Made by a program: the position numbers and the translations under genes. Below the pieces are notes generated by a model that saw only the letters and a list, made by a program, of their open reading frames with translations, had not been told where the DNA came from and ran no database searches. From an uncultured Acidobacteriota bacterium (lineage in GTDB: Bacteria; Acidobacteriota; Vicinamibacteria; Vicinamibacterales; 2-12-FULL-66-21), in the NCBI GenBank assembly GCA_963725325.1, contig CAVRYF010000006.1, forward strand, positions 95,993 to 159,992: a stretch of 64,000 nt of DNA, in the 5' to 3' direction. This document shows positions 6,118-23,976 of this stretch, one piece after another. Each line of letters begins with the position of its first letter. The stretch's first letter is position 1.

Positions 6118-6966
6118 ATGGCGGCTCGCCCCACGTGGAAAGGGTTCATGAAGATCAGCCTGGTGACGATCCCGGTGCGGGTCTTCCCGGCGACGGACGC
6201 GGCGGCGACCATCAGCTTCAACCAGCTGCACGCCGAGTGTCAGACGCGAATCCAGCAGAAGCGCTGGTGTCCGCACTGCGAGCGCGAGGTGCCCATCTCG
6301 GAGATCGTCAAGGGCTACGAATTCGAAAAGGGACGCTACGTCGTCATGTCCGAAGACGACATGTCGAAGGTGCGCCCCGAATCGACGCGCGTGATCGACC
6401 TCGTGCAGTTCACCGACGCGGCGGCCATCGATCCGATCTACGTCGAAAAGCCGTATTACCTGGCGCCGGATGGACCGATGGCACGCGAGGCGTTCGCGGT
6501 CATGCGTGAAGGCATGAAGGGAAAGGCCGGCATCGGCAAGCTGGCGCTCTACGGCCGCGAGTATCTCGTGGCCGTCCAGCCGCGCGACAAGGGCCTCGTG
6601 ATGTACACCATGCGCCACGCGAAGGAAGTCCGCAGCATGGACAACATCGAGGAGCTCGACTCGGTGCCCGAGAAGGTGAAGGCCGAGGAAATCAAGCTCG
6701 CCAAACAGGTGATCGGGAATTTCGAGGGCGCGCTGAATCTGGCGGAGTACAGCGACAAGTATCAGGAAGAGCTGCAGCGGATCATCGACGCCAAGGTCGC
6801 CGGCGAGGAGGTCGTGGCGACCGAGGAGGAGACGCCGCCCAAGGTCGTCAACCTCATGGACGCGCTGCGTCAGAGCCTCGACCGGGTCAGCACGGGGAAG
6901 AAAAAGGCCGCCAAAGCAGTCATAGAGAAGCCGGCCCGGGTCGCGGCGAAGCGCCGCGCGCGGTAA
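6118..6966 (+). CDS. ku: Ku protein (NHEJ DNA end-binding)
   Basis: 282 aa. The N-terminus RPTWKGFMKISLVTIPVRVFPAT and the motif YEFEKGRYV are typical of bacterial Ku. AAGGAG lies 8 nt upstream. It is paired with ligD. Confidence 0.93.
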   Translation: MAARPTWKGFMKISLVTIPVRVFPATDAAATISFNQLHAECQTRIQQKRWCPHCEREVPISEIVKGYEFEKGRYVVMSEDDMSKVRPESTRVIDLVQFTDAAAIDPIYVEKPYYLAPDGPMAREAFAVMREGMKGKAGIGKLALYGREYLVAVQPRDKGLVMYTMRHAKEVRSMDNIEELDSVPEKVKAEEIKLAKQVIGNFEGALNLAEYSDKYQEELQRIIDAKVAGEEVVATEEETPPKVVNLMDALRQSLDRVSTGKKKAAKAVIEKPARVAAKRRAR

Positions 6967-6994: not shown

Positions 6995-9475
6995 ATGAGT
7001 CTGCGCCTTCGTCTGATCGTCGCGTTCTTCTTCCTGTCGGTCGTGCCACTGGCGGCCGTCACGCTCTTCACGTACGCGAGTAACGCGCGCGCGATGCGCG
7101 AGGCGGCTGGCCGCGAGGCCGAGCTGCTTGCCGGCGAGCTCAGCCAGCGCATGCAGGTCGTGACCGCTCAGTTGAGCGAGCGGGTCGAGCGCCTGATGGA
7201 CGTGGCCGAGGCGCGTGCGGAAGCGACCGCGGCGGAGAGCGCCCGCACGGCAGCGCTGGCCACGACCGGCACGGTCGAGCCGGCCGCGGCTGCTCCTCCC
7301 ACCCAGGAAACGCAGGTCGCTCAGGCGCTCGGCGAGATGGCGATGCTGCTCGAGAACGTCGAGTTGCGCGGCCTGCGCGGGCCGCGTCCGCCAGGCGCGC
7401 CTGGTGGTCCGGCGGTGGCCGTGGACGGTTCGGCGGGGGCGACGGCAATCGCGGCCGCTCCGACGTGCCGCCCCCGCCTGGCGCGCCAACTGCGCCGATT
7501 CCTCCGGTCGCCAGCGTCCCGCCGGCACCGGCCACGACGGCTGTCGCGCCTCCGCCGGGCACGGAAGCGCCACCAGCCTTCGGCCGCCGTGTTCGGCGGT
7601 TCGCGTCCAGCTCCGGGTGACGCGTCTCAGGCGCGCGGCTCGGCCGCGACCTCGACTCCATCAACGAGCGACAGCGCCGCGGCCGACGCGACCTCGCGAG
7701 GCAATCCTCCAACGCCGGGAGCCGTTCCACCCGCTGGCGTCGCTCCGTCGCCACCATTTCCACCGCCGTTTCCCGATCGCCGCCCGCCGCCAGGCGCCGA
7801 GGGGCCATCGGATCCCAACGCCACACCTCGCGATCGCATCATGATCGACGTCGGTCCGATGCGGCGCGACATCGTGCGCCAGTTCGTGCCCGAGGGCCAG
7901 TGGGAGAAGCTCACCGAGGAAGAGCGTCAGCGGATCATGGCCGAGGTCAACCAGCGCATGCTCGGCATCGCGCAGGGGATCCAGCTCGGCGCGGCCGAGG
8001 CGCAGAAGCGCGTCGCGGAAGCGCAGCGCGCGGCTGATGCCAAGGCGCAGGCCGCCGTGGCCGCCGCCGTCAAGCCCGCGCCTCGCAAGGCGCCGGTTGT
8101 CGCCGCCGCGCCCGTGGCCACGGCTCGAGCGACGCCAGCGCGGCGCAAGACCGCGCTCTCCGGCACACGGCTCGACGTCACCTTCGAACGCGACGGCAAG
8201 GTCGTGCGCGCCGCGAACGCCGAAGTCAACCTGCCCAATCTCCTCGCGACGGTCCTGACCACGACGCGGCGGGATCGCGGCGAGATACCGTTTGCCGTCG
8301 GGAAGGACGGGCGTCTCTACACGCAGACCGAGGACGACAAGAAGAACATCGAAGCCATCGGCGGCGGCATCACCAAGGCCGACGAACCGGCGGGGACGAT
8401 CAGAGTCGGCGACTGGATCGTCGTGTCGACGGCCGATCCGACCGGCTCGGGACTGCGCTTCGGCATCGCGCGTCCGGTCGGCGACTCGCTGCAGACGCTG
8501 CGCCGGACGAGCGCGCGCAACGCCGCCTTCGGCCTCGGCTTCATCGGCCTCGCGCTCATCGGCATCGTCCCGCTGTCGTCGCGATTGACGAAGAATCTCT
8601 CGACGCTCAGCGACGGCGTCCATCGGATTGCGGCCGGCGACTACAGCGCCCGCGTCAAGGTCGGAGCCCACGACGAGGTCGGCCGGCTGGCCCGGGCCTT
8701 CAACCAGATGGCCGAGGACGTCGAGCTGCACCAGCGCTCGGCAGTCGAGCAGGAGCGGATCAAGCGCGAGCTCGAGCTCGGGCGGCAGATCCAGATCGAC
8801 ATGCTGCCCCAGGGTCCGCTGCGCTTCGGGCTGACCGAGATCAAGGGCGTCTCGGTGCCGGCCAAGGAAGTCGGCGGGGATTTCTTCAACTACTTCTCGT
8901 TGACCGACGGGCGCATCGCGCTGCTCGTCGGCGACGTCTCGGGCAAGGGCGTCGGCGCCGCGCTCCTCATGGCGAATATCCAGGCGTCGCTGCGCACACG
9001 GCTCGCGCTCGGTCAGGATCTCGACGCGATCGCGCGCGAGATCGACGTCGACATCGAGGGCAACACGCCCGGGCCGATCTACGCGACGCTCTTCGTGGGC
9101 ATCTTCAACCCGGCGACGCGCGAGCTGCGCTACGTCAACGCCGGCCATAATCCCCAATACATCCTCCGCACCACCCGCACGCTCGAGCGCATGTCATCGT
9201 CGGGCCTGCCGGTCGGGTTGCTTGCGGGTCGAGGCTACGCCGAGGCGCGCGTTCAGCTGGCGGCCGGCGATCTCCTCTTCTTCTACACCGACGGCTGTGT
9301 CGAGGCCGAGAACGAGGCGGGGGAGATGTTCGGCGCGGAAAAACTGGAGAGCCTGCTCCTATCAGCGGCTGGAGCCGAAGACCTGCTGGCGCGCGTCGAA
9401 ACCGTGCTCGCCGACTATCGCGGCTCGCGCGAGCCGTTCGACGATGCCACGATGATGGTCGTTAAAGTCGGGTAG
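6995..9475 (+). CDS. HAMP domain-containing PP2C/SpoIIE-family protein phosphatase (membrane sensor)
   Basis: N-terminal TM segment, a long Ala/Pro-rich region, a HAMP domain (HRIAAGDYSARVKVGAHDEVGRLARAFNQMAEDV), then SpoIIE motifs (GGDFFNYF, LLVGDVSGKGVGAALLMA, FFYTDGCVEA, DDATMMVVKV). Confidence 0.85.
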   Translation: MSLRLRLIVAFFFLSVVPLAAVTLFTYASNARAMREAAGREAELLAGELSQRMQVVTAQLSERVERLMDVAEARAEATAAESARTAALATTGTVEPAAAAPPTQETQVAQALGEMAMLLENVELRGLRGPRPPGAPGGPAVAVDGSAGATAIAAAPTCRPRLARQLRRFLRSPASRRHRPRRLSRLRRARKRHQPSAAVFGGSRPAPGDASQARGSAATSTPSTSDSAAADATSRGNPPTPGAVPPAGVAPSPPFPPPFPDRRPPPGAEGPSDPNATPRDRIMIDVGPMRRDIVRQFVPEGQWEKLTEEERQRIMAEVNQRMLGIAQGIQLGAAEAQKRVAEAQRAADAKAQAAVAAAVKPAPRKAPVVAAAPVATARATPARRKTALSGTRLDVTFERDGKVVRAANAEVNLPNLLATVLTTTRRDRGEIPFAVGKDGRLYTQTEDDKKNIEAIGGGITKADEPAGTIRVGDWIVVSTADPTGSGLRFGIARPVGDSLQTLRRTSARNAAFGLGFIGLALIGIVPLSSRLTKNLSTLSDGVHRIAAGDYSARVKVGAHDEVGRLARAFNQMAEDVELHQRSAVEQERIKRELELGRQIQIDMLPQGPLRFGLTEIKGVSVPAKEVGGDFFNYFSLTDGRIALLVGDVSGKGVGAALLMANIQASLRTRLALGQDLDAIAREIDVDIEGNTPGPIYATLFVGIFNPATRELRYVNAGHNPQYILRTTRTLERMSSSGLPVGLLAGRGYAEARVQLAAGDLLFFYTDGCVEAENEAGEMFGAEKLESLLLSAAGAEDLLARVETVLADYRGSREPFDDATMMVVKVG

Positions 9476-9536: not shown

Positions 9537-9728
9537 ATGCCCGTGCAGAAGTTCCGCACGATCGAGGAGATGAACAACGCGCCCACACGAGAGCCGGCAC
9601 AACCGGATTTCGTGCGGTTCCTGCGTCACTGCGCGCGCTACTGGGCGATTGCCCCGAAAGTCTACCCGCGCGGCGTGTTCAAGTTCCGCACGATCGAAGA
9701 TGCGCAGCGGGCTCGCGAGCATCACTGA
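9537..9728 (+). CDS. small hypothetical protein (63 aa)
   Basis: The ORF has balanced composition (MPVQKFRTIEEMNN...KFRTIEDAQRAREHH) with an internal KFRTIE duplication. The SD is weak and distant. No family was recognised. Confidence 0.4.
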   Translation: MPVQKFRTIEEMNNAPTREPAQPDFVRFLRHCARYWAIAPKVYPRGVFKFRTIEDAQRAREHH

Positions 9729-9773
9729 CCGCTCCGGGATGGGCCACGTAAGCCGTCGGTTAACTGTCTACTC

Positions 9774-9857
9774 GGGCCATTCGGGCTTTCTTGATCGGAT
9801 TCCAGTCGGAGTAGGGCCAGCCGAAGTTCGAGCCTTCCTTCACGGCGTGCATCACCG
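9774..9857 (-). pseudogene. ~26-codon relic of a PQQ-dependent dehydrogenase paralogue
   Basis: The minus strand reads VMHAVKEGSNFGWPYSDWNPIKKARM. The intact gene reads VMHQVKEGSNFGWPYSYWDPIKKARM at 22950-23033. I counted about 88 percent nucleotide identity over ~66 nt. No ORF context exists on either side. Confidence 0.6.
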
Positions 9858-9885
9858 TATAATCCCCGCACACCCTCAAAAAAGC

Positions 9886-10500
9886 ATGAACGGCGAAGGG
9901 ACTGGAGATCGCGCCGGCCTGAGCGACGAGGTAACTTCGACGTCGCTGGCTCTACTCGCTCGCGCCCAGGCGGGCGACGTGCAAGCGCTCGAAGATCTTC
10001 TCGGCCGGTTGCTGCCGCGCCTGAGAACCTGGATCAGCGGCAGGTTGCCAGGCCGCTATCGTGACCTGTGCGACACAGAAGACCTCGTGCAGGACACGGT
10101 CGTTCGAACCCTGCGGATCCTTCCAGCATTCGAAATCCGACACGACGCTGGCCTTCAGGCGTACCTGCGCCAGGCGCTGTGGAACCGGCTGCGGGAAGAG
10201 ATCAGGCGCTCGGGCCGTCGCGGGCCCTCCGAATCACTCGATGAATCGCTCGCAGCAACGGATTCCTCCCCGCTGGAGCGGGCGATAGGCCTCCAGGCGA
10301 TCGAGCGATACGAAGCGGCGCTGCAGAAGCTGGAGGACGACGAGCGCAGCGCGGTCATCGGTCGCCTCGAGCTCGGCTACTCGTATCCGGAACTGGCGCT
10401 GCTACTTGGCAGGAATACGCCTGATGCGGCGCGCAAGCTCGTCGAGCGTGCCATCCCGAGGATCGTCACCTGGATGCGAGATGACGCACCGGCCGCCTGA
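9886..10500 (+). CDS. ECF-type RNA polymerase sigma-70 family factor
   Basis: ORF 9649..10500 trimmed to the ATG at 9886. It has region 2 (DTEDLVQDTVVRTL) and a region 4 HTH (GYSYPELALLLGRNTPDAARKLVERA). Its stop overlaps the downstream kinase start. Confidence 0.85.
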   Translation: MNGEGTGDRAGLSDEVTSTSLALLARAQAGDVQALEDLLGRLLPRLRTWISGRLPGRYRDLCDTEDLVQDTVVRTLRILPAFEIRHDAGLQAYLRQALWNRLREEIRRSGRRGPSESLDESLAATDSSPLERAIGLQAIERYEAALQKLEDDERSAVIGRLELGYSYPELALLLGRNTPDAARKLVERAIPRIVTWMRDDAPAA

Positions 10501-12895
10501 GTACGCCCACCTCGTCGAGGCGATTGTTGATGGGCGATCGATCGACGTCGTCCCGTCGCTTGACGATGATCGGACGCTCTCTCAGCTACGGGTGCTGCTC
10601 GAGATTGCCCGCGTCCACCGCGAGGCTTTGACCGTCGACGGCGTTGCGGGAGCATCGGTCGGCGCTGCACCGCCGGTGTCACTCGGTCACTCCACGTCGC
10701 GTTGGGCACACCTGCACCTGCTCGAGTCAATCGGACACGGTTCATCCGGCATGGTCTATCGGGCGTGGGACAGCCGGCTCGCAAGGGAGGTGGCGCTCAA
10801 GCTGATGCCGGCGGGAGGGACGTCGACCTCGTCCACGCTCGTCGAAGCCAGACGCCTGGCTCGCATACATCACCCGCACGTGGTCTCGGTGTACGGCGCC
10901 GATCAGATCGACGGCCGGGTCGGCGTCTGGATGGAACTGCTGAGGGGCCGTACGCTGCACGACGTGGTTCGGGCACAAGGGCCGCTGAGCGCGCGAGAGG
11001 CGGCGCTCCTCGGTGCCGACGTGTGCTCCGCGCTCGCCGCGGTGCACGGCGCGGGATTACTCCACCGCGACATCAAAGCCCAGAACGTCGTCCGCGAGCA
11101 CGGGGGCCGCATCGTCCTGATGGACCTCGGTGCAGGCCGTGAGATGGCCGACGATCCCTCGCTCGACCTGGCGGGGACGCCACTCTACATGGCGCCGGAG
11201 CTGTTTGTCGGAGGGCCCGCGACCGTCAGGAGTGACATCTACAGCCTGGGCGTGCTGCTTTTCTTTCTGACGACCGGATCCGTGCCGGTGGTTGCTTCCA
11301 CCTTGACCGAGATCCGCCGCGCGCACGAGCAGGGCCCTCGGAAGTCGTTGCGGGACCTGCGGCCAGACCTTTCGCGTGCGTTTGTCGAGACGGTCGATCG
11401 GGCGATCGGACCTGATCCAGCAGACCGGTTTGCGAGCGCGGGCGAGATGGAGCGAGCACTGTCAGCCAGCATGGGGGCTCGCCCCGTCGTCGTTCCCGCC
11501 TCGCCCAACAGGTCCCCGCTCGGTCGCGTTCTTGGCAGGAGCATTCCTGCATGGGCGGCGATTGCGCTGGCGCTGCTGGGGGGCTTGCTGGTTCTGGTTG
11601 CCGAGAACGTCAATCCGTTCTCTCGACGTGTGTCACCCGGTGTGGCGGTACCTGCGGGCGGCGGGACAGACGCGGGCGTCCGTCCCCTCAGTGCCGACCA
11701 GGCAAAGATTGCCCGCGGCTTCGAGGAACTCGGCTCGACGCTCGCGAGTCGCGGCGAGTGGGACCAATCGGTGCCGCAGTATGCCGAGGCTGAGCGGATC
11801 TACCGCCTCAACACCAACCCGGACGCTCCGCTGGTTGGCACCGCGCTGGCCAGGCTCGGGTGGGCGCAGCAGCACGCGGGGCAGCTCGAGGCGGCGCGTG
11901 GCAACTACGAGCTCGCGCTCGCCAAGTTCGAGAACTTCGACGTCGCCGCATGGACCGAGACGACCCTGGTTGCTCTCGCATCGCTCCACCAGCGCGCCGG
12001 TCGTCAACAGGACGCCGCGGAGGCCCTCGGTCGCGCGCTGCGAGTTCGAGCGCGGGTCCTGCTGGGATCGCACGATGATGTTGGCGGCCTCGCCCGAGTT
12101 GGCGTGGCCGTCGATCGACTGGAGAGCTCGCTGGCGTCAGTGCCGCTCGATCAAGACGGCGACGGCGACTGGCTGCCGGATGCGCTCGAGGTTGCCCTGG
12201 GCTTGAATCCACGATCGTCCGATGGGGACGGAGATGGCGTACCCGATGGGGACGAGGACGTGGACGGCGACGGTGTGTCGAACTGGCTCGAGTTCGGGGT
12301 GACCGTCGATCCGACGAAGATGATTGCGCACTTCGGCGGAGTCGATCCCGAATGGCTCGGGTTTCAGCAACCGGACAACCGGCGGTTCGTCGGGCGTTCC
12401 CTGACGTCGGCAGCGGCTCCAGCCTGGAAGATACCGAGCACCGGGCAAAGCATCTACTTCCATCCCCTCACTGGCGCCCAGCGCGCGGCGGCCATGACCC
12501 GTGGATGGCGATTCGTGACGCGAGGAGAACTGCACGAGGGCGTCGGACGGGTTGCGCTCGATTTGAGTCCTGATGGACCGCTCTTCGACCTGGGTTTCTA
12601 TCAGGAGGGGGCGACCGGCACCGACGTCCGCGTGATTACGAGCGTCGTGCCGTTGACGGGTCCGCTCGAATCCGCGTCTCGCGTTGGTCCGTGGCCACTG
12701 CTGGGCCTCGACTACGAGCCGTCGACGAAAGGCGCGGCGCTCGTGGTGAATGGTGCACGGCGGCCCATCGAGCCCTACGCTGGCCACAATCAGTTTCAAG
12801 ACGACATGGGGTTCTTCTTTGCTGCGAGCATCGGGCCGGGCAAGTCGGCGCGAAGTGATGTGGATTTCAACATCGTCAGGCTCGTGATTCGGTGA
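10481..12895 (+). CDS. membrane Ser/Thr protein kinase with TPR-like, TSP3-like Asp-rich repeats and a C-terminal beta-rich ectodomain
   Basis: Kinase motifs are GHGSSGMVYRA, VALKLM, HRDIKAQN, DLGAG and YMAPE, followed by one TM segment (WAAIALALLGGLLVLV) and DQDGDGDWLPD...DGDGDGVPDGDEDVDGDGVSNWLE. The ATG at 10481 overlaps the sigma gene by 20 nt. Confidence 0.85.
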   Translation: MTHRPPEYAHLVEAIVDGRSIDVVPSLDDDRTLSQLRVLLEIARVHREALTVDGVAGASVGAAPPVSLGHSTSRWAHLHLLESIGHGSSGMVYRAWDSRLAREVALKLMPAGGTSTSSTLVEARRLARIHHPHVVSVYGADQIDGRVGVWMELLRGRTLHDVVRAQGPLSAREAALLGADVCSALAAVHGAGLLHRDIKAQNVVREHGGRIVLMDLGAGREMADDPSLDLAGTPLYMAPELFVGGPATVRSDIYSLGVLLFFLTTGSVPVVASTLTEIRRAHEQGPRKSLRDLRPDLSRAFVETVDRAIGPDPADRFASAGEMERALSASMGARPVVVPASPNRSPLGRVLGRSIPAWAAIALALLGGLLVLVAENVNPFSRRVSPGVAVPAGGGTDAGVRPLSADQAKIARGFEELGSTLASRGEWDQSVPQYAEAERIYRLNTNPDAPLVGTALARLGWAQQHAGQLEAARGNYELALAKFENFDVAAWTETTLVALASLHQRAGRQQDAAEALGRALRVRARVLLGSHDDVGGLARVGVAVDRLESSLASVPLDQDGDGDWLPDALEVALGLNPRSSDGDGDGVPDGDEDVDGDGVSNWLEFGVTVDPTKMIAHFGGVDPEWLGFQQPDNRRFVGRSLTSAAAPAWKIPSTGQSIYFHPLTGAQRAAAMTRGWRFVTRGELHEGVGRVALDLSPDGPLFDLGFYQEGATGTDVRVITSVVPLTGPLESASRVGPWPLLGLDYEPSTKGAALVVNGARRPIEPYAGHNQFQDDMGFFFAASIGPGKSARSDVDFNIVRLVIR

Positions 12896-12914
12896 CGGTC
12901 CGGCAGACGGGACT

Positions 12915-14855
12915 GTGACGAACGTGCTCGACGGGCAGACACTCCAGCGCCTCGTGCAGGTGACCGGGCCGCTCAGTGCGCGCGAGGCGGCCCTCATCGG
13001 GGTGGATGTGTGCACCGCACTGAGTGCCTTGCATCGGGTGGGTTTGGCTCACGGGGGCGTCACGGCAGACACGGTACTCCGGCAGCACGGCGGGCGGATC
13101 GTTCTCGGAGGTGTTGACGGCCGGGGTGAGAACGCGGGTCCGGCGTCGCCCTACACGGCACCGGAAGTGATCGCTGGGAAAACGGCCACGACTTCGAGCG
13201 ACATCTACAGCCTTGGTGTTCTACTCCTGTTTCTCTCGACCGGATCAGTCGCCTTGGCTTCGGTGAAGTTGAACGAGACACATACCACGGACCGAACTGG
13301 CGCGACGAGATTCCTGCGCGATGTGCGGCCCGACCTGCCGCGGGCGTTCGTGGAGATCGTCGACCGCGCGCTTGCGCACGCCCCCGGCGATCGGTTCGCG
13401 AGCGCCGAGGAGATGAGACGTGCGCTGGCCACCGTGATCTCACGCGCCTCGGATCGCCAGGAGGGCGACGCCAAGAGCCCTGCCGGCCTGCTGGCCTGGA
13501 CGCACCCCGCCAGGGTCGTCGCCGCCGTCGTGATTTCCGTACTCGCGATGATGGTCGCCGTCACGGTCGCGCCCCTCTCGTGGAGAGGCTTCTTGACGCG
13601 CACGGCGCCGGCTGCCGATCGCGGGATCGCTGGCGCCGTCCGTGGCCTGACCGCCGATCAGGCGAAGATTGCCTTCGGCTTCGAGGAACTCGCGTCCTCG
13701 TTGGCTGGTCGCGGCCAGTGGGAGCAGTCAGCAGCACAGTACGGGGAAGCCGAGCGTATCTATCGACTGAATATGGGCCCGGACGCGCCGCTCGTGGCCG
13801 CGGCGCTCACCAGGGTTGCCTGGGCGCACCAGCACGCGGGGCAGTTCGATCTGGCGCGCCGCGACTACGAGCTCGCGATCGCCACATTCGAGGATGCCGC
13901 CCCTGGCCCGCTTCTGGAAGTCGCACTTGGGGCTCTGGCCTCGCTCCAGCAACGTGATGGCCGCTTCGCCGATGCCGTCGCCTCGATCGATCGTGCGCTC
14001 ACGTTGCGCGCTCAGATCCTTCAGCAATCCGCCGATCCGACCCGAGGCCTGTCGCGTATCGGCATCGACTCTTCGGTGTTGGCCGCGCTGATGTCCTCAC
14101 ATTCCCTCGCAGACGACGAGGACGGCGACTGGCTGCCTGATTTGCTTGAAGTTGCCGTCGGATTGCGCCCGGATTCGAGCGATACCGACAGAGACGGGGT
14201 TCCGGACGCCGAAGAAGACCACGACCTCGACCGAATTTCGAACGTCGTCGAGTTCGGGTTGACCGCGGATCCCACGAAGATTGTTGCTCACTATGGCGCG
14301 GTGGACCCCGAATGGTCAGGGTTTCAGCAGCCCGCGAACCGGCGATTTTCGGGCCGTGCGGCGGGCGTGCCGTCCGTCGCAGCGTCGTGGAACGTTTCAG
14401 GCCCAGGTCAGCTGATGTACTACCAGCCTCTCACGAGTACCCAGAAGGCAACCGCACTCCGTCGCGGCTGGCGCCTGATGGCTCGAGGCTCGCTGCATCG
14501 TGGCGGCGCGTTCGCGAATGTAGACTTCGAACCTGGCGGTCCGCGTTTCGACTTGGAGTTCCTCCGCAATGCCGCTGACGGCGTCGACGTTCAGCTGAAT
14601 ACCAGCGTGGTGCCGTTCGAGGGACCCATCGAGCACGTGTCGGGAGGCGATCGCTGGGCGCTCACCGAGCTCTTGTACGATCCCACCCTCGGGCGCGCGA
14701 CGATTCTCATCGACGGGGTTCGACGGTCTCCCCAATACGCCGGCCACAAGCAGTTCCAGGAGGGTCTCGGGCTGTTCTTTGGCACTTGGGACGTCTTCGG
14801 TAAGGCCACATCGGGTGACGCCGATCTCGGCCTCGTGGTGTTCGTCATCCGCTGA
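12915..14855 (+). CDS. N-lobe-less pseudokinase paralogue of the upstream kinase (C-lobe remnant + TM + TPR-like + TSP3-like + C-terminal domain)
   Basis: It aligns to the upstream kinase from the alpha-D region onward (GPLSAREAAL, SDIYSLGVLL, DRFASA.EM.RAL). HRDIKAQN is replaced by AHGGVTADT, and DLG and the whole Gly-loop/Lys N-lobe are absent. The start is GTG. Confidence 0.7.
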   Translation: MTNVLDGQTLQRLVQVTGPLSAREAALIGVDVCTALSALHRVGLAHGGVTADTVLRQHGGRIVLGGVDGRGENAGPASPYTAPEVIAGKTATTSSDIYSLGVLLLFLSTGSVALASVKLNETHTTDRTGATRFLRDVRPDLPRAFVEIVDRALAHAPGDRFASAEEMRRALATVISRASDRQEGDAKSPAGLLAWTHPARVVAAVVISVLAMMVAVTVAPLSWRGFLTRTAPAADRGIAGAVRGLTADQAKIAFGFEELASSLAGRGQWEQSAAQYGEAERIYRLNMGPDAPLVAAALTRVAWAHQHAGQFDLARRDYELAIATFEDAAPGPLLEVALGALASLQQRDGRFADAVASIDRALTLRAQILQQSADPTRGLSRIGIDSSVLAALMSSHSLADDEDGDWLPDLLEVAVGLRPDSSDTDRDGVPDAEEDHDLDRISNVVEFGLTADPTKIVAHYGAVDPEWSGFQQPANRRFSGRAAGVPSVAASWNVSGPGQLMYYQPLTSTQKATALRRGWRLMARGSLHRGGAFANVDFEPGGPRFDLEFLRNAADGVDVQLNTSVVPFEGPIEHVSGGDRWALTELLYDPTLGRATILIDGVRRSPQYAGHKQFQEGLGLFFGTWDVFGKATSGDADLGLVVFVIR

Positions 14856-14997
14856 CCGCTACGGTCTCCTGACAAGTCTTCCCCGCCGACGACTTTCATG
14901 TCGTTTGGCGTGAGGATCCAACTTGTCTGTCCGCAAAGCCGCCTCTTCGACATTGGTGTGGTTGACGAGCTAGTGTGCCACTGGCTGGGAGGCCGAG

Positions 14998-17904
14998 ATG
15001 CGAACGCCGCGCGCTGCGGGATTGGTCGCGACCGCAATTCTCGTCTCGCTGTTGCATGTTCGCGGCGGGGCGGCACTGCTGTCGGAACATGTCGGCGCCA
15101 CAAACCCGACCCCCGAGGGCTTCACACGGTTCAGCACGACCACCGCCACCAGTCCCGTCCTCAACTATGCCACCGCGGCCGCCCCCACAGCGCCGACGAC
15201 GAGCTACGCGGCCTGGCAAGCCGCTGCGCCGCCGGCTCTGACGACGGTCGATTTTGAGGCTTTTGCGACCGGAACGCTTCTGACGGGCAACGAATACGCC
15301 GCCCTTGGCCTGACGCTCATTCAGCGCGACGGCGATCCCATGCGAATCGCCTCGCCAGGAGACGGCTCGTTCACATCGACCGCCAACGTCAGGTCTCCGA
15401 CGCATGTCGTATCGTCGTCCGCGATTCCTGGGTCTTCCTCCGGATACGACGGTTCGCGGTCCGAAAACTACGACTTCATCTTTGCCAATCCGATAATGGC
15501 TGCTGGCCTCTGGGTTGGTAATCTCAATCCGGGGTTCAACACCGTCGCCGTCGAGTTCCTCGACGCTGCCGGTGGGGTAATAGCTACGCAGCCGCTCAAC
15601 ACTCTCGACTCCAACCTCATTAGGGGCACCGGGCAATACGACAACCGGCTGTTCGTCGGTATCAATTCGGTGACGCCGGTCAAGCGAATCCGCGTCAACA
15701 ACGCGGCTGGCGATCAGGACGGGATCGTGTTCGACGACGTCGTCTTTGAACCCCCAGGCAATCCAGTACCAAGCCTGACCAGCCTCTCGCCTTCGAGTGC
15801 CGGCATCGGCGCGCAGAGTTTCACCCTCACCGTCAACGGCAGCGACTTCGTAAATGGGGCCGAGGTGCGGTGGAACGGCGCCGCCCGTGCGACGACGTTC
15901 GTTGCCGGTAGCCAGGTGCGCGCGACGATTCCGGCGAGCGATGTCGAGGCGACTGGTACGGCGAGCGTCATGGTGGTCAACCCCTCGCCCGGCGGGGGCA
16001 CGTCGAACGGACTCGTCTTCACGACGAAGCCGACCGTGTCACTCGATAAGACAAAGTTGACATTCGGCGCGGTGACGTCCGGCCAGAGCTTTCTGTTTCA
16101 GACGGCGGCACAGGTCGTTCGGCTCACGCAGACTGGCGGCGGGACAGTCACCTGGACTGCAGCGTCGAACCAGCCGTGGCTGCAGGTCAGCCCGTCGTCG
16201 GGCACCGGTTCGTCGAGTCTGTCAATCAGCGTGAGGCCCGCCACCGGACTGCCTCCAGCCGGCACGCTCACGGGTGCCATCAGCTTTACATTCGCTGGGG
16301 CATTCAATACCGCAGGCCCAATTACGGTGAAGCTCAACCTACTGAGCGGCACATCTGCAGAGCCCTTTGGCTTCGTCGACACGCCGTTCGACGGCATCTC
16401 TGGAGTGACGGGCGCCGTGCCGTTCACAGGCTGGATGCTCGACGACGTCGAAGGCGTGCGGGTCATGATTTGTCGGGCGGCGGTCGGATCGGAGGTCGCA
16501 CCAGCGGATCCGAACTGCGCCGGCATGAACCAGATTTTTGTCGGCTTCCCCGTGTTCATCGATGTCGCGCGGCCGGACGTCGAGGCGGCGTACCCTGAGA
16601 TTCCTCTCAACAGTCGCGCCGGCTGGGGCCTGATGGTCCTGACCAACATGCTGCCGAGCCAGGGGAATGGGACGTTCCTGTTCTACATCTGGGGCCAGGA
16701 TCGTGAAGGAAACACGAAGCTGCTCGGCACACGAACGATCACGTGCGACAACGCGCACGCGACGAAGCCGTTCGGGGCGATCGACACGCCCACCCAGGGA
16801 GGCGTGGCGTCGGGCACCGCTTTTGTGAACTTCGGCTGGGTGCTGACGCCGTTGCCCAAGACGGTTCCGACGGATGGTTCGACGATCAGCGTGCTCGTTG
16901 ATGGGGTGGTTGTGGGTACGGCTGATTACAACTACTTCCGCGATGACATCGCGAAAGCGTTTCCCGGTCTGAACAACACGAACGGGGCAATCGGTGTCCG
17001 TATGCTCGACACGACGACGATGACGAATGGAACGCATACCATCGTCTGGGTGGTCACCGACAATCAGGGAATCACCGAAGGGATCGGGAGTCGCTTCTTC
17101 AACGTCTCGAACGGAGTCGGGGCGGTGACGGGTTCCGTCGACGATACGCGGCCATCCGAGCGATCGATCTCGGCCGCTTCGACTGCTCCGGTCGACTTCC
17201 TGCCGAAAGACACGTCACTCGTGCTCGGGCGTCAAGGGTGGGATCTTGATGCGTCCTACCGTCTGTTGCCCGAGGATGACCTCGACAGGCTCGTCGTGCG
17301 CAGCGAGGAAGTCAATCGCATCGAGCTTCAGCTCGGCGCCGGGGAATACAGGGGGCACCTCCGCGTAGGCAGGGCGTTGAAGCCGCTGCCCACAGGGTCC
17401 CGTCTCGATGCGGCGACGGGCGAATTCACGTGGGCACCGGGGCCCGGTTTCGTCGGCCCGTACGATTTGGTTTTCGTCCGGCATGTCAACGGCCGCGCGG
17501 TGGCGCGCCGTGAGGTTCGCATCGTTCTGCTGCCCAAGGACCGCAGAGCGGCCGGGCCTCAGGTCGTGATCGATACGCCGGCGGCGCGGCGAGTGGTGAG
17601 CCAGCCATTCGCACTCGCAGGGTGGGCGGTGGATCTCGATTCGCCGTCAGGCACTGGTATCGCTGCCCCGCATGTCTGGGCGTATCCACTCGCGGGCGGG
17701 CGTCCGGTGTTTCTTGGCACCACCAAATACGGCGGCGCACGCACGGATGTCGAGGCGCTTCATGGCGAGGAGTTCAGGGGTTCGGGGTTCGACCTTGTCG
17801 TTCAGGGCCTCGCACCGGGGACCTACGACCTGGCGGTCTTCGCGTGGAGCATGTCGCGGGCTGACTTTCTGCCGGCGCGAACAGTGCGAGTCACGGTTCG
17901 ATGA
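14998..17904 (+). CDS. large secreted protein: N-terminal beta-rich domain, IPT/TIG, BACON-like, three Ig-like xIDTP..GW modules
   Basis: GGGAGG lies 5 nt upstream. Signal peptide [22 protein letters not shown]-like region [28 protein letters not shown]-like region [32 protein letters not shown]. Repeated modules begin [14 protein letters not shown] and VVIDTP. Confidence 0.8.
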
Positions 17905-17997
17905 TCTCGTTGCCGGTCTTGCGCATTCAAGTGCCTCCGTAAGGGTGGTCGTTCGCCCGGCGGTTGCCGTCAACTGATTCGTCTCTGAGGAGGACCC

Positions 17998-20900
17998 ATG
18001 GCCGTACGGCGAGCGCGGCGGCAACCAATCCTGGCGATCCCTGACACGCACCAAGCGACGGCCGTCACGCTTGTGCTGTGCCTTGGCTTGAGCATCGCGG
18101 GCTCCGGTCGCGTGTTCGCCCTGTTCGGGTGGCCGCGAGCAGCGACTGGCAGGGTCGCTGATGGCCAGCTCGTTGCCGTTGCGACACGGTCGAGTCCGTT
18201 CAGTTCCCAACCGTGGACCGCGGTGCCGACCTTCAGCGAACGTCCTATATCGGGATCGACTGCCGAGCTGCAGGAACAGGACGAGTGTCAAAGCAACGTA
18301 GAGGGTGCCCTGTGGCCACCATACTGTGACGGCTATACCTATTGCGATATGTATCGCGAGGTGTGCAGGCTCAGCGCGCGCATTGGCTATTTCCGCGTGC
18401 GATTCGAGAGCTCGTGTCCGCCGTGTCAAGCACCATTTCGTCTGACCGCAGGAGAGAGTCGTCGGCGGCCGCTCTCCACGTCCGTGATTCCGAACGCCTC
18501 GACCGTGCACGCCGACGATAGCTCGGCGCATACGCTGCCAGGCGAAACCGCCGTCGATCAACCGGCGACCGGCGATCTGCTGGTTCGAGTCAGTGTGTCG
18601 TCGACCGGAGCCCAGGCGACTGGTGGTAGCAGCATCGTTCCCGCGCTCAGCGCAGACGGCCGCTTCGTCGCGTTCGACTCCGGCGCGACAAGTCTCGTTT
18701 CAAACGACACGAACGGCAAGCGGGACGTGTTCCTGCACGACCGAACGACGTCTCAAGTCACGCGAGTCAGCGTGGCGCCTGGAGGTGTTCAGGCCAACGG
18801 CGATAGCCTATCGCCCGCCATCAGCGCGGACGGACGGTACATCGCGTTCCTATCGAGCGCCACCAACCTCGTGAGTGGAGACACTAACGGGGTCGCTGAC
18901 GTCTTCGTGCACGACCGTCAGTCGGGAACGACCGAGAGGGCGAACCTCGGGCCCTCAGGCGTCCAGGCCAACGCCGCGTCGTGGCCGTCGGACTTGGCCT
19001 GGTACCTCGAGGGGGACATGTCGCGGTCGCAGGTGGCGATGTCGGAGGATGGACGATACGTGGCGTTCATCTCGGGCGCCACTAACTTCGTCCCGCCCGT
19101 TGCGGGTGTTCCGGGAGCCGGGGTCTGCATTCGCGATCGCCAGCTCGCCCAGACCTCGTGCCTCGGTCGTGCCGGCCGTGATGTGACGATGAGCCGCGAT
19201 GGTCGATTCGTTGCGTTCTCCGACGGCGGCGTCTACATTCACGACCGGACGACTGTCCAGACGCAGCTCGTGAGCGTCAGTCGAACCGGTGGCGCCGGCA
19301 ACGCCGCGTCTCTTGCCCCATCGGTTTCCGATGACGGGCGATACGTGGCGTTTACCTCGGACTCGACCGACCTTCTGGCCTCTCAGGCCGGCGGCCCACG
19401 CGGCATTTACCTGCGCGATCGGCAAAACGGTACGACGACGATGATCAGCGGCGGGCGGAATTTCCACCCATCGATCAGCGGCGACGCGAGATATGTGGCA
19501 TACGCAAGGTTCGGCGTTGGAGAGGTCGTGCGGTTCGATCGGATGACCTCGCAGATCCGAGTCATCAGTCGACCGCTCAGTGGGACAGATGCGTCCAATG
19601 CCGCGAGCTTCGGCGCCGCGATCAGCGCCGACGGCCGGACAGTGGCTTTTGCCTCGGCGGCGACCAACCTGATTCCCGGCGACACGAATGGTCAGGACGA
19701 CGTGTTCGTCGCGCCAGTTGGCGATGAGCTGCCGACCATGGCGCTCGACAGGACGTCGCTGCGGTTCGGTGCCGTCAGCAACGGCGCAGGGTTTCTGTTT
19801 CAGACGTCTTTGCAGACCGTACGCCTGACCCAAACCGGACCCGCTACTCCAGTGACGTGGACCGCGATTGCAGCTCAGCCATGGATCCAAGTGAGTCCTT
19901 CGTCCGGCACTGGATCGTCGGCGTTGACCATCACGGTCGGTCAAAGCGCTGGCGTGCCGCCGACAGGAACTGTCGCCGGCGCCGTCAACATCGTGTTCAG
20001 CGGTGCCACGAACACTGTTGGGCAGGTGTCGGTGACGCTGAACGTAATGCCGAACGGAACGTCCCTCTTTCCGCTCGGCTTCGTTGACACGCCGACGGAC
20101 CATGCCACGGGCGTGACGGGAGCCATTCCCTTTACCGGGTGGGCGCTCGACGATGTCGAAGTCGTCAACCTCTGGATTTGCCGTGCGACGACCGCGGGAG
20201 AAGGAGCGGCCGCCGACGCCCGGTGCAACGGCAAGGCTCAGGTGTTTCTGGGCGACGGCGTGTTCATCGAGTTCGCAAGGACTGACGTCCAGCTGTCGTA
20301 CGCCAACTTCCCACATAACAGTCGAGCGGGCTGGGGATTCATGGTTCTGACCAACATGCTTCCTGCGCAGGGCAACGGCACCTACGTGTTCTACATCTAC
20401 GCGAAGGACGCAGAGGGGCGCGTCGTGCAGCTCGGTACACGCACGATCACGTGCGCCAATGCGAGTGCGACCAAACCCTTCGGGACGATCGACACGCCCA
20501 GGCAGGGTGACGTGATTTCCGGGACGAGCTACGTGAACTTCGGGTGGGCGTTGACGCCGCAGCCGAAGGCCATTCCCACGGACGGTTCGACCATCACAGT
20601 CATCGTCGACGGCGTGTCGGTAGGAAAAGCGGACTACAACCACTATCGGCCGGATGTCGCTGGCTTCTTTCCCGGGCTCGCCAACACGAACGGCGCGATC
20701 GGATTCCGCATCCTCGACACGACGGCACTTGCCAACGGCCGACATACGATCTCATGGACCGTGACCGACAATCAGGGCGTGACCGAAGGCCTCGGAAGCC
20801 GCTTCTTTACCGTGTTCAACGGTGCGGGCACTGCGGCGAACACAACGGAGGTCGCCAATCGCGGCGCGGCCGCCGCCGACACCAGTGCCGATGCCCTCGC

Positions 20901-21615
20901 ACGGATACCCTCCGATGGCGCGCCGGTGTTAGGGAGACTCGGCTGGTCCGACGACGCGCCATGGGTCGAATACCACGCCGAGCCTCCTGGCCGCACGGTC
21001 GTGAGGAGCGAAGAGGTCACACGAATTGAGTTGCGGATGGGAAACACCAAGGGACTGTATGCGGGCTACCTGCGCGTCGGTGACGCGCTCGTTCCGTTGC
21101 CAGCCGGCTCGCATCTGGATCGCGCTACCGGCCAGTTCACGTGGGCGCCGGGAGCCGGGTTCATCGGGTCTTACGATCTCGTGTTCATAAAGCGGGCCGA
21201 TGGCATGCGCGCGTTGCGTCAGGAGGTGCGAATCGTCCTGCAGCCGAAAGGGCGGCACCTTGTCGGACCGCAGATTGCTATCGACATGCCAACCACCCAG
21301 CAGGATGTTGGGCAGCCGTTCGTGCTCGCAGGGTGGGCGGCGGATCTCGATTCGCCGTCAGGCACTGGTATCGCTGCGCTGCACGTGTGGGCGTATCCGC
21401 TCGCGGGCGGTCCACCGGTGTTTCTTGGCACCGCCAAGTACGGCGGCGCGCGCACGGATGTCGAGGCGCTTCATGGCGAGGGATTCAGGGATTCGGGATT
21501 CGACCTTGTCGTTCAGAGCCTCGCGCCGGGGACCTACGACCTGGCGGTCTTCGCCTGGAGCATGTCTCGGGCCGACTTTCTACCGGCGCGAACAGTGCGA
21601 GTGACGGTTCGATGA
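17998..21615 (+). CDS. large secreted protein: Cys-rich N-terminus, ~8 PD40/TolB-like propeller repeats, BACON-like, three Ig-like modules (paralogue of 14998..17904)
   Basis: GAGGAGG lies 5 nt upstream of the ATG. There are repeated SADGR[FY]VAF.S.ATNLV..DTNG..DVF motifs. The C-terminal ~600 aa are collinear with the upstream paralogue. The first ~190 aa are atypical, so the start is uncertain. Confidence 0.78.
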   Translation: MAVRRARRQPILAIPDTHQATAVTLVLCLGLSIAGSGRVFALFGWPRAATGRVADGQLVAVATRSSPFSSQPWTAVPTFSERPISGSTAELQEQDECQSNVEGALWPPYCDGYTYCDMYREVCRLSARIGYFRVRFESSCPPCQAPFRLTAGESRRRPLSTSVIPNASTVHADDSSAHTLPGETAVDQPATGDLLVRVSVSSTGAQATGGSSIVPALSADGRFVAFDSGATSLVSNDTNGKRDVFLHDRTTSQVTRVSVAPGGVQANGDSLSPAISADGRYIAFLSSATNLVSGDTNGVADVFVHDRQSGTTERANLGPSGVQANAASWPSDLAWYLEGDMSRSQVAMSEDGRYVAFISGATNFVPPVAGVPGAGVCIRDRQLAQTSCLGRAGRDVTMSRDGRFVAFSDGGVYIHDRTTVQTQLVSVSRTGGAGNAASLAPSVSDDGRYVAFTSDSTDLLASQAGGPRGIYLRDRQNGTTTMISGGRNFHPSISGDARYVAYARFGVGEVVRFDRMTSQIRVISRPLSGTDASNAASFGAAISADGRTVAFASAATNLIPGDTNGQDDVFVAPVGDELPTMALDRTSLRFGAVSNGAGFLFQTSLQTVRLTQTGPATPVTWTAIAAQPWIQVSPSSGTGSSALTITVGQSAGVPPTGTVAGAVNIVFSGATNTVGQVSVTLNVMPNGTSLFPLGFVDTPTDHATGVTGAIPFTGWALDDVEVVNLWICRATTAGEGAAADARCNGKAQVFLGDGVFIEFARTDVQLSYANFPHNSRAGWGFMVLTNMLPAQGNGTYVFYIYAKDAEGRVVQLGTRTITCANASATKPFGTIDTPRQGDVISGTSYVNFGWALTPQPKAIPTDGSTITVIVDGVSVGKADYNHYRPDVAGFFPGLANTNGAIGFRILDTTALANGRHTISWTVTDNQGVTEGLGSRFFTVFNGAGTAANTTEVANRGAAAADTSADALARIPSDGAPVLGRLGWSDDAPWVEYHAEPPGRTVVRSEEVTRIELRMGNTKGLYAGYLRVGDALVPLPAGSHLDRATGQFTWAPGAGFIGSYDLVFIKRADGMRALRQEVRIVLQPKGRHLVGPQIAIDMPTTQQDVGQPFVLAGWAADLDSPSGTGIAALHVWAYPLAGGPPVFLGTAKYGGARTDVEALHGEGFRDSGFDLVVQSLAPGTYDLAVFAWSMSRADFLPARTVRVTVR

Positions 21616-22163: not shown

Positions 22164-23831
22164 CTAGCGCTGCGCCTTGACCTGCGCCGCTGTCACGGCT
22201 GACGCCCCCTTACCAAACGCGCGACGGACGAACGTGAGCGTGTCGGCGATGTCGACGTCGCTGAACGCCGCGGCAAACGGCGGCATCTGGACGGCATACT
22301 TCGCCCGGTTGGCCGGGAGGACCTGCGCGGGTCCCTGCAGGACGACTTTGATGAGCGTCGCCGGATCGCCCGCGACCACGCTGCTGCCGGCGAGCGGCGC
22401 CTGCAGTCCGGCGACGCCGGTGCCGTCGGGCATGTGGCACGCCGCACAGACCTGCTGATAGAGCTGCGCGCCGCGCGAGCCGTCGTTCGTCGCCGTGCTG
22501 GCTGGCGTCGTCTGGAGCGCCGGCCGCACCGCGGTGCTCGTCTCGCCGGTGTAAATCACTCTCCAGATGCGCCCTTTCTCGGTATCGCCGATGTAGAGCG
22601 ACCCGTCGGGGCCCACGGCCAGCCCGAGCGGACGAAAACGTGCGTCGCCCGTGCTGACGAACTCACGCTTGCCGGCAAAGTCATCGGCAAATGTTTCGTA
22701 GGTGCCGACCGGCATGCCCTTGTCGTCGAACGGCACGAAGGCGATCTGATAACCCGCCTGCGCGCGCGGCGCGCGGTTCCACGATCCGTGGAAGGCCACG
22801 AACGCGCCGTTTCTATACTTCTCCGGGAATTGCGTGCCGGCGTAGACCGTCATCTGGATCGGTGCCCAGTGTCCGGGGAACGCGATGACCGGCTTGTCGT
22901 ACGGATCGGGATCGACTCGCTTGATGTTGTCGCCCCCGAACTCGGGCGCGACCATCCGGGCTTTCTTGATCGGATCCCAGTAGGAGTACGGCCAGCCGAA
23001 GTTCGAGCCCTCCTTCACCTGGTGCATTACTTCGGAAACGCGCTCCGCATTGTCGAGCGCGTCGTAGTGTTCAGGATCGACGACGTTGAGGTTGTCGCGT
23101 CCCATCTGGACCATGAAGAAGCTCTTCGAGACCGGTTGCCACGCGAGCGCGAGGGCATGGCGATGGCCCGTCGAGAAGCGCACGCCATCGGCCTGCGTCT
23201 GATTCAGCTTGTTCGCATCGAAGCGCCAGAAACCGCCGTAGGTCTTCTGGAACTCGGTCGCGTCCATGCCTTTCGCGCCGAGCTGGCGGTCGGGCTTGCT
23301 GTAGACGTTGTAAGGAGATCCGATCTCGACGAGCATCCGTCCCTGATCGTCGAAGGCGAATGCCTTCGCGTCGTGATCCCGCTCAGCCGGCAGGTTCGAG
23401 ACGATCGTCTGCAACGGGCTCGTCGGCACGAGCTCGTCAGGCGTGTACTTGTATCGATACACGGCCGTCCGGCTCGAGTGATAGAGCCAGCCGTCGTGGA
23501 AGGCGATGTGCGTGCCGCCGTCGCCTGGGCCGAACTCCTTCGTCTCGTCGATGCGGCCGTCGCCGTTCGTGTCGCGCAGGGCGAAGATCTGACCGAGCCG
23601 CGTCTTGGCGTAAATATCGCCATTTGGCGCGACGGCGATGCCGCGCAGTCGCTCGGCGGTGTTCCCGGCTTTTCTGCCGACGACGAGATTGTCGGCCACG
23701 ACGAGCGCACGGAAGCCCGGCGGTAGCGTGATAGCGCCGTCGTCAGGGTCAGGCGCCGGGAGTTTTGATTGCGCGGCGCCGAGGGTGAAAGCCGAGACGA
23801 GGACAAGGGAAGAAAGGAGCAGATTCTTCAT
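22164..23831 (-). CDS. PQQ-dependent sugar (sorbosone-type) dehydrogenase with C-terminal cytochrome c domain
   Basis: Trimmed to MKNLLLSSLVLVSAFTLGAAQ (signal peptide). The propeller motif is GSNFGWPYSYWDP. The C-terminal haem motif is CAACH, with a downstream Met (QMPPF). Confidence 0.85.
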   Translation of the reverse strand: MKNLLLSSLVLVSAFTLGAAQSKLPAPDPDDGAITLPPGFRALVVADNLVVGRKAGNTAERLRGIAVAPNGDIYAKTRLGQIFALRDTNGDGRIDETKEFGPGDGGTHIAFHDGWLYHSSRTAVYRYKYTPDELVPTSPLQTIVSNLPAERDHDAKAFAFDDQGRMLVEIGSPYNVYSKPDRQLGAKGMDATEFQKTYGGFWRFDANKLNQTQADGVRFSTGHRHALALAWQPVSKSFFMVQMGRDNLNVVDPEHYDALDNAERVSEVMHQVKEGSNFGWPYSYWDPIKKARMVAPEFGGDNIKRVDPDPYDKPVIAFPGHWAPIQMTVYAGTQFPEKYRNGAFVAFHGSWNRAPRAQAGYQIAFVPFDDKGMPVGTYETFADDFAGKREFVSTGDARFRPLGLAVGPDGSLYIGDTEKGRIWRVIYTGETSTAVRPALQTTPASTATNDGSRGAQLYQQVCAACHMPDGTGVAGLQAPLAGSSVVAGDPATLIKVVLQGPAQVLPANRAKYAVQMPPFAAAFSDVDIADTLTFVRRAFGKGASAVTAAQVKAQR

Positions 23832-23976
23832 AGGCGTGGCTCTGCCCGACGATGCTAGCACGGCGGTACCTCGGGGTCTCGTGCCCGTCATGGTGGAGGA
23901 AACTTTCACCGTTCGGGGGGAAAACGCGGGGCTCGCTCCCTCATCATGGGTCACGCGTCAATGACGGGTCTATTCC

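Follow-up and report, generated by a model that had tools for sequence, protein, structure and literature searches.

The locus described here raises the question of whether five neighbouring genes form a functional unit or are neighbours by chance. In a 64,000-nucleotide (nt) stretch of metagenomic DNA from an uncultured soil bacterium (contig CAVRYF010000006.1, positions 95,993 to 159,992; referred to as the window), genes for an extracytoplasmic function (ECF) sigma factor, a transmembrane Hanks-type Ser/Thr kinase, a pseudokinase paralogous to that kinase and two large secreted proteins follow one another in the same direction, all on the plus strand (Table 1). The initial annotation had proposed these five as a self-contained sensing and surface module. 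Open reading frame (ORF) and domain analysis confirms the cluster, its coordinates and its domain calls; comparison with 39 related loci (designated by L-numbers, about 0.6 Mb in all) shows that the five genes are not one conserved, self-contained module. The sigma factor and the kinase are the conserved core, a pairing of a known kind. The reading favoured here, with a probability of roughly 0.5, is that the locus is a kinase-associated ECF sigma unit with a lectin-type sensor, an added partial copy of the kinase, and variable secreted cargo downstream. Its new features are a pseudokinase that lacks the N-lobe, the nature and distribution of the sensor domain, and a cis-element shared between loci; the sigma-kinase pairing is ordinary, and so are the large proteins, both from a huge family.

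Sigma factor and kinase as the conserved core

The sigma factor gene stands directly upstream of the kinase gene in L002 (a second assembly with the same locus), L004 (14-nt overlap), L005 and L035, that is, in every locus of the long-kinase clade with upstream DNA. In the window the sigma stop and the kinase ATG (10481) overlap by 20 nt, as first described, and the following intergenic gaps measure 19-28 nt after the kinase gene, 142 nt after the pseudokinase gene and 93 nt after large gene 1. Synteny is not conserved past the sigma-kinase pair, a finding that the initial annotation had itself set against a self-contained module. Three observations show that the five genes do not form a conserved set. 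The third gene changes from locus to locus: the window and L002 have the pseudokinase gene there, L004 and L005 a gene for a PEP-CTERM protein, and L035 one for a cadherin/Big_9 protein. The closest relative, L002, lacks large gene 2; its single large gene, the orthologue of large gene 1, is followed directly by a GGDEF gene. Arrays of related large genes elsewhere are free of sigma and kinase genes.

The first three genes differ from their surroundings in recent history. Between positions 9857-15169 of the window and 9382-14690 of L002, the DNA of this trio is 95-96% identical and its synonymous divergence (dS) is 0.08-0.15, whereas the flanking genes are 82-89% identical, with a dS of 0.63 for the HAMP-SpoIIE phosphatase gene upstream, and large gene 1 shows a dS of 0.53 as a whole and 0.73 in the stalk that forms its C-terminal part. 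Since the dS of the trio lies far below that of the flanks and of the large-gene DNA, the three genes appear to have undergone a recent exchange or sweep together, which suggests recombination or relocation. The left edge of the block falls exactly at a TATAAT box, to the left of which the DNA of L002 is unrelated; on the right, high similarity runs through the spacer behind the pseudokinase gene and 170 nt into large gene 1. Upstream of its sigma gene, L002 carries a piece of DNA whose homologue in the window (22249-22574) is the cytochrome c end of a glucose/sorbosone dehydrogenase-like (GSDH) gene.

The sigma factor is classed by its profile matches as an ECF (group IV) sigma-70 factor, scoring 52.8 bits against the ECF superfamily model TIGR02937 (cut-off 42.9), 28.2 against Sigma70_r2 (cut-off 24) and 22.9 against Sigma70_r4_2, just under the cut-off of 25.7. 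The best NCBIfam model is TIGR02984 (Sig-70_plancto1), but at 67 bits against a cut-off of 183.75 the protein is not a member. Relative to L002 its ratio of nonsynonymous to synonymous divergence (dN/dS) is 0.11.

The pair had been compared at the outset with EcfP/PknT of Vibrio parahaemolyticus, in which phosphorylation activates the sigma factor. The comparison holds for the pairing. Both EcfP/PknT and EcfK/PknS of Xanthomonas citri place an ECF sigma beside a transmembrane Hanks kinase and lack an anti-sigma factor, and PknS combines an 83-aa N-terminal extension (75 aa in the window kinase), a kinase domain, one transmembrane segment and periplasmic TPRs (PMC13147305). It does not extend directly to the mechanism. 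In group ECF43, a Hanks kinase is co-encoded, the acidic DAED of region sigma-2.2 is lost and the phospho-acceptor Thr sits in an uncharged QTTA or STTA (PMC13147305, PMC8999054), while the acidic DAED-type motif lets ordinary ECF sigmas bind RNA polymerase (PMC8999054). The window sigma reads DTEDLVQD in sigma-2.2, with its acidic residues retained, and the sigmas of the window, L002 and L035 all show DTED or DTDD followed by LVQD, not an uncharged motif with a phospho-Thr. Because the acidic DTED is retained, the EcfP phospho-switch is not simply transferable and was rejected for this protein, which by its motif is not of the ECF43/EcfP type. It appears instead to resemble uncharacterised kinase-associated ECF groups that keep the acidic motif (PMC7826278). 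In ECF59-62, ECF217 and ECF283 a kinase is co-encoded, no anti-sigma factor is present, and the acidic motif has a Ser/Thr within it or nearby; all of these groups await experimental characterisation (PMC7826278, PMC8999054). The window differs from them in that its host is probably a member of the Acidobacteriota and its sigma fails the planctomycete TIGR02984 cut-off. A further likeness is to EcfK: Ser and Thr are abundant in the linker between sigma2 and sigma4 (SESLDESLAATDSSP), as they are around T106 of EcfK, where linker phosphorylation is critical (PMC13147305).

The kinase matches Pkinase at E = 4e-37, and its GHGSSG, VALK, HRDIKAQN, DLG and APE motifs are all intact, which classes it as a Hanks-type Ser/Thr kinase with a full set of active-type motifs; its dN/dS relative to L002 is 0.24. 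The features first assigned to it (intact motifs, transmembrane segment, TPRs, Asp-rich repeats and a C-terminal domain of about 200 aa) were all found again. A calcium-type motif, DxDxDGxxDxxE, occurs at residue 581 of the kinase and residue 420 of the pseudokinase. Homologues that match only the Asp-repeat segment carry PF18884; the window proteins show no PF18884 match at E <= 0.01, and NCBIfam returns weak CglD and MtsD matches. With the kinase ectodomain as query, a word-index search of proteins returned TSP3-repeat proteins only, and a scan of species genomes for close relatives with this ectodomain gave no match. The N-terminal extension (residues 1-75) matches no family and is conserved in several family kinases. 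A phage-defence kinase (PD-T4-6, MADS/MAD6 or BREX PglW) was considered with PADLOC and NCBIfam models and rejected, as the matches cover the generic kinase domain only and partner genes are absent.

A different arrangement, regarded as unlikely, is that the sigma factor is controlled through the TATAAT promoter, the upstream PP2C phosphatase or a hidden anti-sigma segment such as the 75-aa extension, and that the kinase has other substrates. Such control is consistent with the retained DTED, which enables RNA polymerase binding in ordinary ECF sigmas (PMC8999054), with the conservation of the TATAAT box at the left edge of the shared block, with the HAMP-SpoIIE phosphatase upstream in both the window and L002, and with the conservation, among several kinases of the family, of an N-terminal extension to which no fold is assigned. 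However, throughout the clade the sigma gene either overlaps the kinase gene or directly adjoins it, and no anti-sigma domain (zf-HC2, RskA or others) was detected by Pfam or NCBIfam in the five proteins or in a 63-aa ORF upstream, in agreement with the initial annotation. In addition, more distant lectin-kinases in L015 and L023 lie behind ECF sigmas that read QPTA and thus fit ECF43, and EcfK requires linker phosphorylation although part of its motif persists (PMC13147305). As for the phosphatase, other genes stand between it and the sigma gene in L002, and in L035 it is not found near the sigma gene. For these reasons it is kept as context only, a possible but unproven counterpart of the kinase.

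The lectin-like sensor domain and the truncated twin

The C-terminal domain of the kinase (about 195 aa), at first described simply as beta-rich, is present as stated and can be corrected to a lectin homologue. Its AlphaFold2 model is a jelly-roll with a pLDDT (predicted local distance difference test) of 95.6, for which the best Foldseek match is the lectin domain of the Vibrio cholerae sialidase (2w68; template modelling score 0.74, E = 2e-8), followed by legume lectins. A profile of the lectin family searched against PDB sequences leads to the same sialidase (E = 3e-15). PF09264 is matched by 7 of 31 family members, with the window's own copies below the Pfam threshold. Profile and model agree in predicting a homologue of the sialidase lectin (CBM40) domain. 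In V. cholerae this domain (PF09264) is part of a glycosidase, whereas here it forms the extracytoplasmic end of kinases and ToxR-like regulators.

An exhaustive profile search collected 197 clusters of this family at 50% identity, and the domain is C-terminal in all of them. It ends three types of membrane protein, namely long kinases with the architecture of the window, short kinases of about 580 aa, which pair with ECF sigmas in L015 and L023, and ToxR-like proteins of about 380 aa with an N-terminal Trans_reg_C DNA-binding domain. Matches of the family in species genomes were to Acidobacteriota in six of six cases. The alignment usable for the locus search mainly returned the distant short-kinase and ToxR-like members, and a word-index protein search with the C-terminal domain alone gave no match and missed its own cluster too, so this search is uninformative. 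Due to its distribution over kinases and ToxR-like regulators, the domain would act as an extracytoplasmic sensor. Because it is homologous to a sialic-acid-binding lectin, a glycan ligand is plausible, and the glycan cue that had been suggested for the kinase gains plausibility in the same way.

The ToxR-like genes (Trans_reg_C, transmembrane segment and lectin domain, about 380 aa) lie at 9425-10594 in L007, 5040-6179 in L017 and 9458-10588 in L024, and occur also in L010 and L011. Directly upstream of them in L007, L010, L011 and L017 is a divergent ORF of about 560-610 aa; those of L007 and L017 match no Pfam family significantly.

The pseudokinase, 49-52% identical to the parent kinase, aligns to residues 152-804 of it (49% identity). 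Its reading frame opens within the C-lobe (at 12924 according to the gene callers), and the N-lobe is missing; HRD is changed to AHG, the DLG region is lost, and only positions 78-255 of the Pkinase profile are covered, with the alphaE-alphaI motifs kept. The remnant is followed by a transmembrane segment of its own (198-216) and then by TPR, TSP3 and lectin domains. The claim that this gene is a retained paralogue lacking the N-lobe was borne out, since its ORF is intact in two assemblies and its ectodomain is under purifying selection: dN/dS relative to L002 is 0.31 for the TPRs, 0 for the Asp repeats and 0.28 for the lectin domain, like that of the kinase's own ectodomain.

Two distant cluster representatives, P0147 and P0142, share this truncated form. 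Each has a Met start at the same point between alphaD and alphaE (GP[LM]xxREAAL), has lost HRD and the activation segment, and contains the transmembrane helix, Asp repeats and lectin domain; TPRs were detected in P0147 only of the two. The P0147 gene follows, with a 4-nt overlap, an active-type kinase gene whose ectodomain is different. In a tree of ectodomains the window pseudokinase joins P0016 and then the neighbouring kinase, and P0147 and P0142 form a separate clade. As P0016 groups with the pseudokinase and not with the kinase, the duplication appears to be old. The truncated form would therefore be either old with local gene conversion or have arisen more than once. Three other candidates for truncated twins were set aside: the contig ends within P0026, P0124 is a kinase gene with a frameshift, and P0018, on a 1.5-kb contig with no DNA, was not counted.

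That the pseudokinase is a decaying partial tandem duplicate with no function of its own is quite improbable. A start 19-28 nt past the kinase stop is what a partial tandem copy would be expected to show, the catalytic residues are gone, dN/dS reaches 0.68 in the C-lobe remnant (from 27 changed codons), and the gene is absent from L004, L005 and L035; moreover, several other truncated kinases of the family (P0026, P0124) proved to be artefacts. Decay would not explain, however, why 643 codons stay open in two assemblies at about 50% amino acid divergence from the parent, why ectodomain dN/dS (0-0.31) resembles that of the active kinase while the alphaE-alphaI motifs are kept, or why P0147 and P0142 share both the start point and the loss of HRD and activation segment. 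The grouping with P0016, pointing to an old duplication, also argues against it. The most economical role for the pseudokinase is that of a non-catalytic co-receptor or decoy acting through the shared ectodomain and/or the C-lobe.

Bacterial pseudokinases such as MviN, YukC/EssB and those of a Ser/Thr kinase atlas (bioRxiv 10.1101/2025.01.12.632604) are likewise membrane-associated and devoid of catalytic residues. In the part of the literature consulted, the families described have substituted catalytic residues and family-specific indels, and none is listed as having lost the N-lobe entirely. The window pseudokinase stands apart in lacking the N-lobe altogether and in being paralogous to the active receptor next to it, whose ectodomain it shares. 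The presence of this paralogue behind the kinase, together with the TSP3-like repeats and lectin domain added to the kinase, sets the locus apart from ECF43 systems.

Downstream genes and their possible control

Both large proteins begin with an N-terminal hydrophobic segment, share their last 630 aa at 64% identity, and differ in their heads. Large protein 1 has a signal-like N-terminus, a head (1-255) without a family match, a TIG-like CoaZ_rpt_PGGG repeat (256-342, E = 4e-32) and BACON_2 (368-435), followed by a C-terminal stalk of beta-sandwiches. Large protein 2 combines a PD40 beta-propeller head, a sub-threshold BACON_2 and the same 624-aa stalk. Thus the TIG, BACON and PD40 domains of the earlier description stand, and its three Ig-like modules turn out to be part of a longer string, as the stalk is predicted to consist of about six beta-sandwich domains resembling Ig-like adhesin or S-layer stalks. 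The stalk sequence has no match in the PDB. At least 2980 proteins match the module, the top 120 at 56-69% identity over its full length, and the heads of the family are exchangeable (PD40/Tricorn propellers, TIG, DUF5122, metalloprotease domains, LamG and others). In their strings of beta-sandwiches behind a signal peptide and their BACON/TIG-like repeats, the large proteins resemble the Ig-like domains of PrgB, SbsB, Sap and the NCBI "choice-of-anchor" proteins. They differ from these multi-Ig and S-layer proteins in that the stalk is one 624-aa unit, conserved to the extent given above among the top 120 matches and carrying exchangeable heads, and no known anchoring signal was found. Because the last 225 nt or so of the two genes (17680-17904 and 21391-21615) are 91-93% identical, far above the 50-70% found elsewhere in the module, gene conversion between them is indicated.

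Stalk-family genes form tandem arrays of three to four members, with neither sigma nor kinase, in L037, L038 and L039. GSDH-type genes adjoin the arrays in L037 and L038, as in the window, where the GSDH gene (22164-23954, minus strand) also encodes a cytochrome c domain; this association with stalk arrays may be more conserved than that with sigma-kinase pairs.

The spacer between the pseudokinase gene and large gene 1 holds a conserved non-coding element made up of TGAGGATCCAACTTGTCTG (14911-14929; TGAGGAT-N5-TTGTCTG) and CCGCAAAGCCGCCTC (14931-14945). In the first 100 nt past the pseudokinase stop the window and L002 differ once, where about 10 differences would be expected from the local dS (about 0.1). 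Both motifs recur in L005, in the spacer between the kinase gene and the PEP-CTERM gene, although the L005 kinase ectodomain is only about 45% identical; they are found nowhere else in the window or the 39 loci, save for a degenerate copy in L004. To a moderate degree, these comparisons support common control, across the clade, of the gene that follows the receptor genes, most simply by the sigma factor. The initial proposal that the sigma factor switches on the adjacent surface proteins is partly upheld, as the shared cis-element precedes large gene 1 and none precedes large gene 2. Large protein 1 is a plausible lineage-specific target of the sigma factor; large protein 2 is more likely a neighbour derived from the tandem amplification usual in its family.

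Other searches for control signals yielded little. A consensus scan was uninformative: it found no sigma-70-type promoter or full -35/-10 pair, and its four weak terminator-like hairpins were fewer than in shuffled sequence. The upstream regions of the sigma gene and of the two large genes have no motif in common. Exact enumeration of bipartite motifs across five cargo spacers returned nothing, and Rfam reports no RNA family.

The main competing explanation, possible and yet improbable, is a chance neighbourhood in which a sigma-kinase pair and a leftover duplicate lie beside amplified surface genes with no regulatory link and the large genes are controlled separately. The size of the stalk family (at least 2980 members), its arrays without sigma or kinase, often beside GSDH-type genes, and the lack of large gene 2 in L002 are in keeping with this, and so are the different histories of the trio (dS 0.08-0.15) and its surroundings (0.63 for HAMP-SpoIIE, 0.73 for the stalk) and the three upstream regions without a common promoter motif. 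Chance would account less well for motifs of 15 and 14 nt that recur, within about 0.6 Mb, only before the L005 cargo gene, for a spacer behind the pseudokinase that is more conserved than synonymous sites, for a high-similarity block that reaches through this spacer into large gene 1, and for the presence of a gene for a secreted protein behind the receptor in all other loci of the clade.

Several points nevertheless weigh against a kinase-associated sigma unit with controlled cargo. L005 has the two motifs in another order than the window, and because of this they cannot be one collinear -35/-10 promoter; they are also absent upstream of the sigma gene, of large gene 2 and of the cargo gene in L035. 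The window spacer (14856-14997) folds with -61.6 kcal/mol (z = -4.2 against shuffles), the TTGTCTG motif pairing with an upstream GACAAGTC, so that the spacer could serve as an RNA hairpin or terminate the upstream operon. For the L005 spacer and for the one preceding large gene 2, folding is no better than for shuffles; the L005 result favours recognition at the DNA level. The cargo contexts that are independent number only three, secreted proteins are common in such genomes, and the large-protein family usually occurs away from sigma-kinase pairs. Furthermore, with its DTED the sigma factor may be intrinsically active and regulated otherwise (PMC8999054), the C-lobe remnant of the pseudokinase is weakly constrained, as its dN/dS indicates, and the organism is known from metagenome assemblies only.

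Proposed signalling scheme and surroundings of the locus

On the observed composition, homology, selection and synteny, a chain of biochemical steps can be proposed for the kinase-associated sigma unit. A glycan or surface polymer would bind the lectin/TPR ectodomain, possibly in a calcium-dependent manner, and the ligand would alter self-association of the kinase and so turn it on. The kinase would then phosphorylate the sigma factor, not at a charge-restoring Thr of the EcfP type but more likely at the Thr of DTED or in the Ser/Thr-rich linker between sigma2 and sigma4, as for T106 of EcfK. RNA polymerase carrying this sigma would transcribe the gene directly downstream through the element at 14911-14945. 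The pseudokinase may pair with the kinase through the ectodomain and/or the C-lobe and, as a co-receptor or decoy, tune the threshold or the ligand range. In its fullest form, in which a lectin receptor kinase and an N-lobe-less co-receptor or decoy gate an acidic-motif sigma that drives any cargo placed behind a conserved promoter or operator element, and the sensors constitute a new glycan-sensor family spread over three types of transducer, the scheme would be a signalling logic not described before in bacteria; in this form it is speculative and rather doubtful.

Kinase control of ECF sigmas has been worked out only for ECF43, in which phosphorylation supplies the missing negative charge. 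A sigma factor that has a kinase partner and yet keeps this charge offers a case in which a second mode of kinase control could be tested. The N-lobe-less twin would offer a simple bacterial example of signalling by a receptor with a decoy or co-receptor, otherwise known from eukaryotic receptor kinases, and the CBM40-like domain is a candidate glycan sensor in soil Acidobacteriota, where environmental sensing is almost unstudied.

Table 1. Genes and elements of the locus in window coordinates, with the domain layout of the kinase in residue numbers.
Feature	Position	Strand	Remarks
Membrane HAMP-SpoIIE (PP2C) phosphatase gene	6995-9475	+	826 aa; context only
TATAAT box	9861-9866	+	20 nt upstream of sigma ATG
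ECF sigma factor gene	9886-10500	+	204 aa; Pfam, NCBIfam
Transmembrane Hanks-type Ser/Thr kinase gene	10481-12895	+	804 aa
Kinase: N-terminal extension			75 aa
Kinase: kinase domain	residues 79-317
Kinase: transmembrane segment	residues 355-373
Kinase: TPR	residues 407-531		TPR_12
Kinase: TSP3-like Asp repeats	residues 556-610
Kinase: CBM40-like lectin domain	residues 610-804
Pseudokinase gene, no N-lobe	12924-14855	+	643 aa; 646 aa if GTG 12915 is the start
Conserved non-coding element	14911-14945	+	53 nt upstream of large gene 1
Secreted large protein 1 gene	14998-17904	+	968 aa
Secreted large protein 2 gene	17998-21615	+	1205 aa

The window matches the 254-kb ENA metagenome contig ERZ25039502 contig_80299, on which the HAMP-SpoIIE phosphatase gene is split in two by the gene caller, and its proteins are also encoded on a 371-kb contig with NCBI and ENA as listed sources. 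A long region separates the two hydrophobic segments of this phosphatase. Between its gene and the sigma gene lies the 63-aa ORF (9537-9728), which contains an internal repeat (KFRTIEEMN/KFRTIEDAQ), matches no family, has no counterpart within the compared stretch of L002 and is followed by a terminator-like hairpin (9771-9785). Farther upstream, LigD (ligase and primase-polymerase; 3245-5644, minus strand) and Ku (6118-6966, plus strand) form a divergent non-homologous end joining pair.

Additional kinases occur both in the window and in L035. A second Ser/Thr kinase gene of the window (27340-28980) encodes 546 aa with a kinase domain at residues 223-462, and only this domain is related to the lectin-kinase family. 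In L035 (2075-7727) the lectin-kinase is broken over three reading frames, by assembly errors or as a pseudogene, and close to the sigma-kinase pair two more kinase genes stand beside genes for PD40/Tricorn beta-propellers.

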